A DNA stretch of 39,304 bases, from positions 1 through 39,304 of IMG/VR virus record IMGVR_UViG_3300016657_000039. The stretch is one strand, 5' to 3'. A model generated the notes under the pieces. The model did not search any database, had not been told where the DNA came from, and saw only the letters and a program-made list of their open reading frames with translations. Positions 2,030 to 5,058 of the stretch are shown piece after piece. Position 1 is the stretch's first letter, and every line of letters begins with the position of its first letter. Both the position numbers and the translations under genes were made by a program. The DNA comes from a virus (lineage: Duplodnaviria > Caudoviricetes).

Positions 2030-2257
2030 ATGCAACTACCTAAAAATAAAACAATTACAACTACTTTTAAAATTTTTGATTTTATAGTATGTTTAAACGA
2101 TGGTTTTTTATATCAGTTATCGCATTGCCCTAAAAAGCGTACTAAAGTATTTCGTAAATTAACTTATAACGAAAAAAGAAATGCTTATTATATAAATGGT
2201 CAATTAGTAAGTAAAAATAGATTAAAGAAATTAGCAATAAAAAACCCCTCTATATAA
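2030..2257 (+). CDS. Small basic hypothetical protein immediately after the cassette array
   Basis: 75 aa K/R-rich ORF with AAATTATG start. Confidence 0.7.
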   Translation: MQLPKNKTITTTFKIFDFIVCLNDGFLYQLSHCPKKRTKVFRKLTYNEKRNAYYINGQLVSKNRLKKLAIKNPSI

Positions 2258-2270
2258 GTGGGGTTTTGTT
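2239..2270. terminator. Bidirectional intrinsic terminator at the convergence of plus and minus genes
   Basis: AAAAAACCCC-loop-GGGGTTTT hairpin overlapping both stop codons. Confidence 0.6.
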
Positions 2271-2693
2271 TTTAAATAACTTTTTAATTAATTCTATTGG
2301 GTTAAAACTTCTATATAACCACATTGCAATTAATAGTATTAAAATAAGATATAAGATGTATTTAAACGCAATATTTAATAAGTAATTATAATCAACTTCT
2401 TTGCTTTCTTTTTCTTGTTTTAAATCCACTTTAATTGAGCCATTATCTTTTTCTTTTACTACTTCAGTTCTATAGTGGTTTTCTATTATAGTATTTACTA
2501 TTGTATCTTTTCCTATTATCATAGGTTTTTGTGGGTCAAAAGGTTTTAAAGTAAACTCCCCACTTGTTAAACTAAACTCTTTGTCTTTGTTGTAAACGCT
2601 ATCTTTTTTAATTTCAGTTTCTTCACTTGACTTTTTTACAGTGCCGCAACCTATTAATAAGATTGCGGTTAATATTAATGCTGTTTTTTTCAT
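2250..2693 (-). CDS. Lipoprotein with C-terminal transmembrane helix, candidate unimolecular spanin
   Basis: MKKTALILTAILLIG-C lipobox; C-terminal hydrophobic YILYLILILLIAMWLY; near the endolysin. Confidence 0.6.
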   Translation of the reverse strand: MKKTALILTAILLIGCGTVKKSSEETEIKKDSVYNKDKEFSLTSGEFTLKPFDPQKPMIIGKDTIVNTIIENHYRTEVVKEKDNGSIKVDLKQEKESKEVDYNYLLNIAFKYILYLILILLIAMWLYRSFNPIELIKKLFKNKTPLI

Positions 2694-3718
2694 TATACAA
2701 TTTTATAGTTTATAATTCTAATGTTTTTTAATTCGTAATTACCATCTTTACTAACTTTAACGTGTGCAAATCCGTGATTATAATTATTGTATGGTGCATA
2801 TTCTGGTTCTAAACCACATAAACAACCAGTTGACCACGTTGTTGTAACTTCTCCAGATAATGTCTTTTCTGTATGTTCACTTGTTCTGTGGTGGTGTCCT
2901 ACTATACAACTTTCTTTAGCTTTCATAAATAAACCTCTTGCTGGGTTAACTGGTGGCGCAAATCCTCCGAACCATTCGTGACCATGTAATATTGGTAATT
3001 TACCAGCTAAAGCCATTTGTTTATCTTTAACCAAAGTAACTCCAAATTCTCTGAATCTTAAAAGTTGCTCAAGTTTAAAATCGTCAATTCCTAAAAGTTC
3101 AGGAGCTTTAATCATTAAATAATCTTCATATCTTTTTTCGTGGTTTCCTATCTTATAGTAAATAGGACAATTAAAAAGTTCTTTTAGTTGTTTTAAAAAA
3201 CTTCTAACCATTTCCAACTCTCCAGCAATATCTCTTAATCTTCTATTTTTTGTAAATCTTGAACATTGATAAAAGTCAGCAATATCTCCGTTTAAATAAA
3301 TAGCGTTAACATTATTTTCTAAACCATAATTTAAAGCTAATTCTAATGCTTTGTTATCTTGATAAGGAAAATGTATGTCTGATAAAATTAAAATGTTATT
3401 TTGTCCTTTAGGAATAATAAAAGGCTCACATTTTTCATAGTCGCTTTCTGGCAAGTCAATTTTTTTTGACATAAATTGTTTTTTAGTTTCTTCAGAACGT
3501 TCTGAAACTCTTATTACAGTTGAATTTTTACCTTTCATTTCGCCTCTGTAACGCCTTACATTTGAACGTACAGCGTCTACTGAACTAAAATCTAAAGAAT
3601 GTTTTTCAAAAATCATTCTTGAAATAGCCATTGTAGATGCTTTAGGAAATTTAGCAAGATATTCAATAATAATTTCTTTTTTGTAAGTTGCGGAGTTTTG
3701 GTTTCCTTTTTTACTCAT
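2693..3718 (-). CDS. Calcineurin-like metallophosphoesterase with N-terminal extension
   Basis: Motifs SDIH, GDIAD, GNHE, HGH, GHHH. Confidence 0.88.
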   Translation of the reverse strand: MSKKGNQNSATYKKEIIIEYLAKFPKASTMAISRMIFEKHSLDFSSVDAVRSNVRRYRGEMKGKNSTVIRVSERSEETKKQFMSKKIDLPESDYEKCEPFIIPKGQNNILILSDIHFPYQDNKALELALNYGLENNVNAIYLNGDIADFYQCSRFTKNRRLRDIAGELEMVRSFLKQLKELFNCPIYYKIGNHEKRYEDYLMIKAPELLGIDDFKLEQLLRFREFGVTLVKDKQMALAGKLPILHGHEWFGGFAPPVNPARGLFMKAKESCIVGHHHRTSEHTEKTLSGEVTTTWSTGCLCGLEPEYAPYNNYNHGFAHVKVSKDGNYELKNIRIINYKIV

Positions 3719-3744
3719 AATTATTTAGTTTAGAATTATTTAAA

Positions 3745-3752
3745 CAAATTTA
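3745..3752 (-). promoter_or_regulatory. Bacteroidota -7 promoter box for the phosphoesterase
   Basis: TAAATTTG on the minus strand ~27 nt upstream of the ATG. Confidence 0.55.
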
Positions 3753-3784
3753 GTAAAAAAAGTTTACAATTAACAAAAAATCAT

Positions 3785-3910
3785 TATATTTGTGAATGTA
3801 ATCACTGAAAAGTATATAAATTTGGTGAATATAAAATTGAGTTAGTTTAGTTTTTTCATAATTGTTTAGTTTTGGTAAGAAAAGCGATATTTTTTAAGTA
3901 TCGCTTTTTT
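3785..3910 (+). ncRNA. Candidate ~110 nt sRNA (TATATTTG promoter, no ORF, intrinsic terminator)
   Basis: -7 box at 3785-3792; AAAAGCGATA/TATCGCTTTTTT terminator at 3880-3910; internal TAGTTTTTTCATAATT motif. Confidence 0.5.
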
Positions 3911-3921
3911 ATTTAAAAAAG

Positions 3922-3953
3922 TTTGTGTAATTAAAAAATTATGTTTAATATTG
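3922..3953 (+). promoter_or_regulatory. Promoter of the leader/tRNA operon
   Basis: TTTG (3922-3925), 20 nt spacer, TAATATTG (3946-3953, one mismatch to TAnnTTTG); predicted start near the ATG at 3958 (leaderless). Confidence 0.55.
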
Positions 3954-3957
3954 CAAT

Positions 3958-4026
3958 ATGAAATTTACAAAAACAAATACTCAGCATCTTCCGCAACCTA
4001 TTTTAATGGGTGGTATTGGTGTATAG
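3958..4026 (+). CDS. Putative attenuator leader peptide MKFTKTNTQHLPQPILMGGIGV
   Basis: 22 codons; codons 9-14 are CAG CAT CTT CCG CAA CCT; sits between the promoter and a terminator in front of the tRNAs. Confidence 0.65.
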   Translation: MKFTKTNTQHLPQPILMGGIGV

Positions 4027-4051
4027 TATAGTTAAAATATATTTACAACTT

Positions 4052-4086
4052 AAAACCACTTATTAATTTAAGTGGTTTTTTTATTT
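4052..4086 (+). terminator. Attenuator-type intrinsic terminator directly before the first tRNA
   Basis: AAAACCACTTA-loop-TAAGTGGTTTT followed by TTTATTT. Confidence 0.75.
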
Positions 4087-4159
4087 CGAGTAGTGACAAA
4101 ATTGGTTACGCGCCCACCTTGGAAGTGGGAGATTGCAGGTTCGAGTCCTGCCTATTCGA
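4087..4159 (+). tRNA. tRNA-Pro(UGG), weak D-arm, A37
   Basis: Acceptor CGAGTAG/CTATTCG+A73; anticodon arm CCCAC-CTTGGAA-GTGGG; T-arm GCAGG-TTCGAGT-CCTGC. Confidence 0.85.
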
Positions 4160-4257
4160 CGGAGTATAGAAGTGTAAGTTCGAATCTTACTCATTTGCCT
4201 AAATAATGTTAAGACTTGCAAATGATGGTGTAATTGGGAGCACACTTTACGTGATAT
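4160..4257 (+). ncRNA. Circularly permuted tRNA-like element (3' half precedes 5' half)
   Basis: T-arm GTAAG-TTCGAAT-CTTAC + TCATTTGC (4174-4198), 19 nt linker, then GCAAATGA-TG-D-arm GTGT-AATTGGGA-GCAC-A-CTTTAC (4218-4250). Confidence 0.6.
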
Positions 4258-4330
4258 TACAAAATGATGTAATTGGTTAGCATAACAGACTTTGACTCTG
4301 TTTGTTTAGGTTCGAGTCCTAATTTTGTAA
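4258..4330 (+). tRNA. tRNA-Gln(UUG), A37
   Basis: Acceptor TACAAAA/TTTTGTA; anticodon arm ACAGA-CTTTGAC-TCTGT; T-arm TTAGG-TTCGAGT-CCTAA. Confidence 0.9.
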
Positions 4331-4338
4331 CTAAATAT

Positions 4339-4413
4339 GGTGTTATTGTGCTTAATGGTTAAGGCAGTTAGTCTGTGAAACTAATTATATCGGTTCGAAT
4401 CCGATATAACACC
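4339..4413 (+). tRNA. tRNA-His(GUG), A37
   Basis: G-1:C73 pair; acceptor GTGTTAT/ATAACAC; anticodon arm TTAGT-CTGTGAA-ACTAA; T-arm ATCGG-TTCGAAT-CCGAT. Confidence 0.9.
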
Positions 4414-4418
4414 CAATC

Positions 4419-4492
4419 GCTCCAATGGTGGAATGGAATACACAATGGCTTTAGAACCCATTTTTTTGCAAGTTCGAATCTTGCTTGGAGTA
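4419..4492 (+). tRNA. tRNA-Leu(UAG), no long variable arm, A37
   Basis: Acceptor GCTCCAA/TTGGAGT+A73; Leu-type D-arm GTGGAATGGAATACAC; loop TTTAGAA; T-arm GCAAG-TTCGAAT-CTTGC. Confidence 0.8.
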
Positions 4493-4497
4493 CAAAA

Positions 4498-4569
4498 TTC
4501 AGTATAGTTTAATGGATAAAATTTTTGACTACGAATCAAAAGATAGGAGTTCGAATCTCTTTACTGAAA
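4498..4569 (+). tRNA. tRNA-Arg(ACG), A37
   Basis: Acceptor TTCAGTA/TACTGAA; anticodon arm TTTGA-CTACGAA-TCAAA; T-loop TTCGAAT. Confidence 0.9.
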
Positions 4570-4570
4570 C

Positions 4571-4603
4571 AAAAACCGCACTATTAATTTAGAGCGGTTT
4601 TTT
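4571..4603. terminator. Bidirectional terminator between the tRNA operon and the endolysin
   Basis: AAAAACCGC...GCGGTTTTTT. Confidence 0.7.
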
Positions 4604-4647
4604 TATAAGTATTAAAACTTATATTTGTTATTTATAAGTGATTGAAC

Positions 4648-5058
4648 TTATATATTTTTATATTCTGTCTTTGCATCAAAACTTGGACATGCTTTTGCAA
4701 CTCCTTTAAAATCTCTATGACCTTGAACTATAGCGTTAGGAAATTGTTTTTTAGCTTGTTTTATTAGATATAAAAGACTTTCTTTTTGTTTTGGAGTTCT
4801 TGTGTCTTTTGGATTTCCTTTTCCGTCTACACCACCAATATAACTAAAATGTATTGATTCAGAATTATATCCTTTAACTCCATTTGTTACTTGTTCATAG
4901 TTTGCTAATTCGTGAATAATTCCGTTTGAATCTATTAACCTATGATAACCTACAGATTTCCATTTTAAAACATTTTTCCAATAGTTTAAAATAGATTCTT
5001 TTGTTGCGTTCGGTTGTGATGCTGTGCAATGTATTACGATATATTTTATTTCTCTCAT
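4648..5058 (-). CDS. Endolysin, N-acetylmuramoyl-L-alanine amidase (T7 lysozyme/Amidase_2 type)
   Basis: IVIHCTA, GYH, GHRDF...KACPSFD zinc-amidase motifs. Confidence 0.92.
   Translation of the reverse strand: MREIKYIVIHCTASQPNATKESILNYWKNVLKWKSVGYHRLIDSNGIIHELANYEQVTNGVKGYNSESIHFSYIGGVDGKGNPKDTRTPKQKESLLYLIKQAKKQFPNAIVQGHRDFKGVAKACPSFDAKTEYKNI

Follow-up and report, generated by a model that had tools for sequence, protein, structure and literature searches.

Five tRNA genes in the window

The window, a 39,304-base (39.3 kb) stretch of DNA with a G+C content of about 28%, carries genes annotated as terminase, capsid, tail, primase/helicase and amidase. ARAGORN and Rfam find exactly five tRNA genes in it, all on the + strand, in a block flanked by a metallophosphoesterase gene on one side and the amidase gene on the other. 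These genes, and the spacer between the first two, are as follows.

4087-4160, + strand: tRNA-Pro(UGG), anticodon TGG, A37 at 4123, weak D stem (sequence, ARAGORN, Rfam)
4161-4257, + strand: optional Pro-Gln spacer in which pieces of a tRNA follow a permuted order (T arm, then a closed acceptor-like hairpin, then the D arm), with no anticodon loop intact
4258-4331, + strand: tRNA-Gln(UUG), anticodon TTG, A37 at 4295 (sequence, ARAGORN, Rfam)
4339-4414 (4340-4414 by ARAGORN), + strand: tRNA-His(GUG), anticodon GTG, G-1:C73 present, A37 at 4378
4419-4493, + strand: tRNA-Leu(UAG), anticodon TAG, A37 at 4455, short variable loop, C31-C39 mismatch
4498-4570, + strand: tRNA-Arg(ACG), anticodon ACG, A37 at 4534 (sequence, ARAGORN, Rfam)

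By their Rfam scores (50.5-65.5 bits against a gathering cut-off of 29) all five are canonical tRNA genes. Identity elements recognized by eye include the G-1:C73 of tRNA-His and the G72/A73 of tRNA-Pro. CCA is not encoded in any of the five. The initial annotation had read five anticodon loops, one for each amino acid of the C row (CNN codons), with A37 in every one, and the sequence agrees with these readings letter for letter. Substrates of TrmD are tRNAs with G36-G37, a class to which the host counterparts belong. Judged by sequence, the five phage tRNAs cannot be TrmD substrates. In the window and in most of the related cassettes described below, tRNA-Leu(UAG) has a short variable loop, compared with the long-armed tRNA-Leu of the host.

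The set is not a typical draw of anticodons. The probability that five of five would carry G36 is 1.5e-4 when they are drawn from the 30 anticodon types of a Flavobacterium genome, seven of which have G36. CNN codons make up 9.9% of the 11,737 codons in the 62 open reading frames (ORFs) of the window. The earlier statement that C-row codons are not the commonest holds for Leu (CUN, 173 of 976 codons) and Arg (CGN, 109 of 370), whose tRNAs miss the most used codons. It does not hold for Pro (CCA, 139 of 269) or Gln (CAA, 419 of 459), where the codon read is the commonest for its amino acid. Pure codon compensation was considered as the sole reason for the set and rejected on these figures, namely the low CNN share and the Leu and Arg anticodons that miss the main codons.

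The permuted spacer at 4161-4257 is covered in near relatives of the window, and other cassettes have different spacers or none. A search of viral contigs for the motif gave one match, in the L022 contig, where the order of parts is the same and the stem letters differ between the two copies. Comparison with Rfam gave nothing of weight, and no such order was seen by eye in the T5 stable RNAs. The folding z score of the spacer is only -0.56. It would be unable to decode as it stands, and may be an elbow mimic or a relic. The cassettes of phi19:1, L244 and L034 have a different Pro-Gln spacer with a shared GGAGAG hairpin.

A predicted attenuator precedes the tRNA genes

The region upstream of tRNA-Pro contains the elements expected of a leader-peptide attenuator.

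3922-3953, + strand: predicted Bacteroidota-type promoter, with TTTG at 3922-3925, a 20-nt spacer and TAATATTG at 3946-3953, ending 4 nt short of the leader ATG
3958-4026, + strand: 22-codon leader ORF; a variant with 97% identity preserves its frame and stop
3982-3999, + strand: control codons by ORF reading, a run of six CNN codons (Gln His Leu Pro Gln Pro)
4005-4014, + strand: G-rich segment with two alternative partners, the control codons or 4055-4064 (antiterminator), as predicted by constrained folding and by comparison of own with swapped pairing
4052-4086, + strand: intrinsic terminator-like hairpin (4052-4079) and U tract, between the leader and the first tRNA

The promoter-like call is based on the Bacteroidota -33/-7 consensus; a sigma-70 scan did not report the site at 3922-3953. 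A similar box lies at an equal distance ahead of most cassette leaders. The longest CNN run across the 62 protein ORFs is three codons, compared with six in the leader, and a run of at least six within 21 codons has a chance probability of 1.25e-5. The hairpin at 4052-4079 is the only terminator-like site within 3600-4800, and 3954-4086 folds with a z score of -3.18. In the window, control codons are clustered in a short ORF ahead of the tRNA genes, and an intrinsic terminator-like site separates the ORF from them. A mutually exclusive antiterminator that a stalled ribosome could free is indicated by covariation, by folding of the partial transcript and, for the first stall site only, by folding of the full one.

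The covariation comes from the 24 distinct cassettes introduced below. Antiterminator pairing of each G-rich segment with its own terminator arm averages -8.7 kcal/mol, versus -6.3 kcal/mol with swapped arms, and none of 20,000 permutations was as low, although the cassettes are related rather than independent, so that permutation p values overstate the case. The preference for the own pair is weak or null in six cassettes (L027, L034, L192, L210, L218 and L241). Control codons also track the tRNA content. Glu codons occur in the control region of all seven cassettes that carry tRNA-Glu and in none of the 17 that lack it. The Pro codons of the leaders are 22 CCG and 2 CCA.

Constrained folding of a partial transcript yields the antiterminator when a ribosome masks the first control codons, and the terminator when it masks the leader to its stop. 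The naked partial transcript also prefers the antiterminator, and at equilibrium the full transcript favors the terminator except with a stall at the first control codon. Such a switch would therefore be kinetic. Quick reading of the six CNN codons would let the terminator form, as covariation and folding suggest. A ribosome stalled on these codons would free 4005-4014 to pair with the 5' arm of the terminator, and transcription would then continue into the tRNA genes. The phage tRNAs made in this way would relieve the stall, giving negative feedback. An upstream attenuator had been proposed in the initial annotation, and both the anatomy and the covariation over 24 cassettes support its prediction as an attenuator tuned to the codons of its own cassette.

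The leader and tRNA genes form an accessory cassette

Two further features delimit the unit.

3915-4568, + strand: accessory cassette of about 650 bp, defined by empty-site alleles and by identical ends in different flanks
4571-4602, strand not assigned: terminator-like hairpin beyond the tRNAs, which empty-site alleles have as well

The layout of the cassette is a promoter-like site, the 22-codon leader, the antiterminator/terminator region and the tRNAs. In L290, which is 94% identical to the window over 2238-3920, about 60 (59-66) other bases replace 3921-4568. Contigs of runs X7, X19 and X20 have the same empty site, again with 59-66 other bases in place of the cassette. Conversely, L343 and a contig of run X3 hold a cassette with the same ends inside different flanking DNA. 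The empty sites and the shared ends together define the cassette as an accessory module. The X3 variant, at 97% identity, keeps the leader frame and stop, and both of its control-codon changes are synonymous. Position 38 of tRNA-Gln varies in it, and no change at position 37 is listed. The exact tRNA-Pro pattern of the window has no match in the viral contigs. Among relatives of the phosphoesterase gene, the cassette is present in only 1 of 80 flanks, so that this gene is not a synteny anchor. Upstream, 3785-3909 contains another promoter-like box, then non-coding sequence and a strong hairpin, all of which empty-site alleles retain. Part of this segment is complementary to an A-rich translation start context, and it might encode a small antisense RNA.

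We judge the cassette to be a real, conserved and mobile unit. It might nevertheless be a decaying or silent passenger with no present function, as the weak D stem of tRNA-Pro, the stem mismatch and short variable loop of tRNA-Leu, the lack of encoded CCA and the existence of empty-site relatives could suggest. We consider this very improbable, given that 24 divergent cassettes conserve the order of genes, the frame and control codons of the leader, and compensating hairpins.

The likely host and its position 37 baseline

Three observations lead us to infer that the host belongs to the Flavobacteriaceae: matches of the capsid protein to Flavobacterium phages, occurrence of the cassette in cultured Cellulophaga and Maribacter phages, and the Bacteroidota-type promoter-like box. 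Flavobacterium phages give the best cultured matches to the capsid protein at just 25.7%. This protein matched none of 151 Flavobacteriaceae genomes, and the amidase matched none of five.

In Flavobacterium sp. SUN052, all eight core G36 tRNA genes that were read have G37. Across 31 Flavobacteriaceae genomes, G37 forms were matched in 30 for Pro, 31 for Gln, 30 for Arg-ACG, 20 for His and 10 for Leu-TAG, with patterns that left position 37 free for Pro and excluded only C for the other four. tRNA-like A37 matches were found in three of these genomes, all within accessory arrays. Over 41 genomes across the phylum, Gln has G37 in 35, and Arg-ACG has G37 in 21 and A37 in two. Both tallies were read by eye, with non-tRNA pattern matches discarded. 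A loose Pro-to-Gln adjacency pattern was also run against 401 Flavobacteriaceae genomes, and the matches inspected were core tRNA-Gln or noise, with no cassette. All five Flavobacteriaceae genomes tested for trmD have it.

The core G36 tRNAs of the sampled Flavobacteriaceae carry G37, and the whole C row is therefore decoded there by G36-G37 tRNAs. The initial annotation had named A37 in host tRNA-Pro and tRNA-Leu as an observation that would count against its proposal, and this is not what the core tRNAs of the sampled genomes have. On the sequences compared, the phage set is a G37-free mirror of the C-row tRNAs in the likely host lineage.

Position 37 across related cassettes

Related cassettes were collected with a Gln D-arm pattern (54 viral loci), a leader-only pattern (56), a Gln-His pattern (20) and from cultured phages. 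One cassette was kept per leader lineage, giving 24. Excluded before counting were L038, as it lacks a C-row cassette, repeated entries of one lineage, and three mis-called genes (Leu-TAG of Calle_1 and of L192, and the second 'Pro' of L236). The survey finds the Pro, Gln, His, Leu and Arg set with A37 conserved as a unit in many phages, and the cultured phages that carry it are Cellulophaga phi19:1 (KC821607), Calle_1 (MT732432) and Maribacter phage Panino (PP540027). The leader-only pattern contains no tRNA sequence, and tRNAs lie downstream at 15 of its 56 viral loci. All of these are C-row sets, several of them from one lineage. In a metagenome scan with this pattern, tRNAs were present at 1 of 119 loci, which belongs to a known lineage. 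The tRNA-Pro(UGG) of phi19:1 (L006 2366-2440, KC821607) is absent from the record annotation.

Among 108 distinct G36 tRNAs in the 24 cassettes, position 37 is A in 98, U in one and G in nine. Twenty cassettes are wholly free of G37. The exceptions are L215 (all three tRNAs), L245 (four of five), L248 (His) and L252 (Gln). L215 and L245 have a CNN leader and host-like G37 loops on phage-type tRNA bodies, and so provide natural controls for the role of A37. Some cassettes also contain Glu-UUC and Leu-UAA, which are not G36 tRNAs. The mean likeness of the tRNA bodies is just 0.61-0.64, and tRNA trees are too poorly supported for counting origins of A37.

A37 could simply be inherited or drifting, in a cassette that tops up any shortage of charged tRNA and has nothing to escape. 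The base composition of the genome, with about 28% G+C, favors changes from G to A. A37 is frequent across phages generally in Leu, Gln, His and Arg tRNAs; T5 has it in Leu-UAG, together with G37 in Pro. In 118 tRNA-bearing loci found with a Ser-Ser pattern as control arrays, whatever the phage host, Leu-NAG has A37 in 30 of 42 genes, and the excess in cassettes is not significant (p 0.08). Wholly or partly G37 cassettes exist as well. Drift would explain poorly why position 37 is less often host-like than positions 32 and 38. Only nine of the 108 G36 tRNAs match the host at position 37, compared with 35 at position 32 and 43 at position 38, and position 32 has mostly shifted from U to C, opposite to the AT bias. 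The U37 of tRNA-His in one lineage also fits poorly with G-to-A drift. Pro A37 is far commoner in cassettes (22 of 24) than in the Ser-Ser-pattern arrays (8 of 37), which makes Pro the discriminating member of the set. The 44 non-cassette loci of the Gln D-arm search have A37 in 4 of 11 Pro and 1 of 7 Leu-TAG genes.

Leader-gated tRNA operons in larger phages and chromosomes

The tRNAs of Calle_1 are divided among three leader-terminator operons, and the codons of each leader match the tRNAs behind it. Panino has at least two leader-gated tRNA operons. These layouts place the C-row cassette as one block within a wider leader-gated tRNA scheme of larger phages. The division can be seen in Calle_1 (L007 2038-5662), Panino (L258), L049 and L201, where one block serves purine-start codons (K, I, G, M, D, T, V, R-AGA, A), a second mostly U-start codons (Y, S, N, W, F, C), and a third C-start codons plus Glu and Leu-UAA. 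A very long gene labeled 'tRNA methyltransferase' adjoins the Panino tRNA arrays (L258 7286-9081; PP540027 28228-33717).

Such matched operons are what would be expected if the cassette were one of three blocks that answer any shortage of charged tRNA. With the position 37 and Pro results set against it, we regard this general account as unlikely.

Related accessory arrays occur in five Flavobacteriaceae chromosomes (G001:C2 77500-78300, G002:C14, G003:C78, G023:C1 998000-999400 and G024:C14 37600-39000). A leader and terminator are visible in four of the five. A37 is found in 22 of their 23 G36 tRNAs, and 10 of 30 non-G36 tRNAs are also altered at position 37 (U37 in Asp and Glu, G37 in Phe). 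Genes for Rnl2, RlaP, RtcB or an RF-1 domain adjoin three of the five arrays. Band-7 genes are also among the neighbors. Only the chromosomal arrays resemble L-arrays in being long and having RNA-repair neighbors; the cassette of the window is five tRNAs long, with a phosphoesterase gene on one side and an amidase gene on the other.

Possible nuclease evasion and modification bypass

We favor a model in which the cassette is a ribosome-stall attenuator that supplies replacement tRNAs when a host nuclease directed at G36-G37 destroys the C-row tRNAs, and tentatively assign it a probability of about 0.45. The trigger would be a defense or toxin that cuts tRNAs of the G36-G37 class; with A37, the phage tRNAs would be cut less and would no longer depend on TrmD. 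Precedent and gene context are the grounds for these two steps. In vitro, the mycobacterial toxin VapC-mt11 cleaves tRNAs for Pro, Leu, Gln and Arg on the 3' side of G36-G37 (PMC6459853). In the sole tRNA-Pro examined there, G37A shifted the cleavage site without preventing cleavage, and the toxin had two tRNA targets in vivo. The anticodon loops of the window tRNAs differ from those of the host, as in phage tRNAs thought to evade nucleases. Against escape, tRNA-Pro(UGG) of the window retains G35-G36, G37 is kept partly or fully in 4 of 24 cassettes, and the non-G36 Glu-UUC and Leu-UAA tRNAs join some of them. In the Flavobacteriaceae, no G36-G37-specific nuclease was identified; a PIN domain is present in one of five genomes, a domain match that does not give specificity.

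Alternatively, the attenuator could sense under-methylated host G37 tRNAs when TrmD is blocked or SAM or Mg is short, or A37 could spare newly made phage tRNAs the wait for TrmD. The core of the cassette corresponds to the TrmD substrate class of the host, and trmD is present. Two studies provide precedents. In E. coli that lacks m1G37, tRNA charging falls, ribosomes stall at CCN, CGG and CUA, and the leu and ilv operons are expressed more strongly (PMC8384417), and evolution of trmD-deficient cells gave rise to an A37 tRNA-Arg recoded to CCG (PMC8643618). The leaders favor CCG, a strongly stalled codon, but this choice may instead serve pairing with the G-rich segment. In flavophages, 110 of 121 G36 tRNAs differ at position 37 from the host, for which one genome is the reference, compared with 4 of 82 non-G36 tRNAs. 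This near confinement to G36 tRNAs fits the nuclease and TrmD readings equally. Bypass of TrmD fails to predict the U37 Asp and Glu, the G37 Phe or the RNA-ligase neighbors of the chromosomal arrays, and fails to predict leader-gated operons for non-TrmD tRNAs. No TrmD-directed defense was found in the literature searched. We judge this explanation to be quite unlikely.

The RNA-repair neighbors and the altered Asp, Glu and Phe tRNAs of the chromosomal arrays favor RNA damage over either a TrmD shortfall or a plain top-up. The initial annotation had proposed that the set bypasses a defense or stress that hits G36-(m1)G37 tRNAs. The difference from host G37, the conservation of the unit and the matched leader agree with this proposal, whereas the 4 of 24 cassettes with some or all G37 and the phages with three operons weaken it. 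TrmD, SAM or Mg limitation, which it had listed among the stresses, is weakened by the chromosomal-array context, which points to nuclease evasion. A broader version of the nuclease model is doubtful. It holds that an undescribed flavobacterial defense disables the entire G36-(m1)G37 class, and that the mobile cassette acts as sensor and antidote, reporting the attack while its G37-free tRNAs restore C-row decoding.

Comparison with known systems

The presence of tRNA genes in phages has long awaited an explanation. The parts of the cassette are known, and their combination was not found in the literature searched. Full-text searches, with most subscription papers outside their coverage, found no attenuator-gated phage tRNA operon and no class-wide loss of G37.

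Attenuators of amino-acid operons (trpL, hisL, thrL, ilvL and leuL) consist of a leader with control codons, alternative 1:2, 2:3 and 3:4 hairpins and a terminator. Those of thrL and ilvL are multivalent, and mgtL has a Pro-rich leader. The predicted cassette attenuator shares with them the short control-codon ORF, the alternative hairpins and the terminator, and would be multivalent like thrL and ilvL. Unlike these leaders, it is phage-borne, and what it would control are tRNAs that read its own control codons, not enzymes or transporters.

Van den Berg et al. (2023, PMC10264068) proposed that phage tRNAs with altered anticodon loops escape the anticodon nucleases of the host, and T5 tRNA-Tyr acts against retron-Eco7, relying on a strong promoter (PMC11555353). 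The cassette tRNAs resemble these in having loops that differ from those of the host, rescue of a depleted tRNA pool being proposed or shown there. They differ in replacing the whole G36-G37 class as a mobile unit with a codon-matched predicted attenuator. The main-text passages of the two studies name neither a position 37 class nor an attenuator; loop changes, which may include position 37, are tabulated in the supplement of PMC10264068. The in vitro substrates of VapC-mt11 (G36-G37 tRNAs for Pro, Leu, Gln and Arg) approximate the cassette set, but this enzyme is a mycobacterial toxin from a different phylum and not a flavobacterial defense (PMC6459853). The Anabaena trn operon is a long tRNA array (L-array) that is induced when translation is impaired and adjoins or is co-regulated with rtcB (PMC8421152). 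Its control is attributed to promoter repeats (PMC8421152) and a repressor (PMC10272220). The cassette is likewise an accessory tRNA operon; the text of PMC8421152 contains neither 'attenuat' nor 'position 37'.

The phi19:1 cluster (KC821607) and the Pro-Glu-Gln-His-Leu-Leu-Arg blocks of Calle_1 (MT732432) and Panino (PP540027) are the same cassette, with leader, terminator and A37 C-row tRNAs. Their records annotate only tRNAs, with neither leader function nor A37, and phi19:1 omits tRNA-Pro. To our knowledge, m1G37 modification is held to be essential. If functional, the cassette would decode Pro, Leu, Gln, His and Arg codons without m1G37 and would apply attenuation to tRNA genes. In about 650 bp it joins a predicted sensor to replacement tRNAs set apart from those of the host by one defined base. 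Its occurrence in cultured phi19:1, Calle_1 and Panino makes codon supply, nuclease evasion and modification bypass separable. Were a class-wide defense to exist, the cassette would be a ready reporter for finding it and a natural TrmD-independent decoding set.
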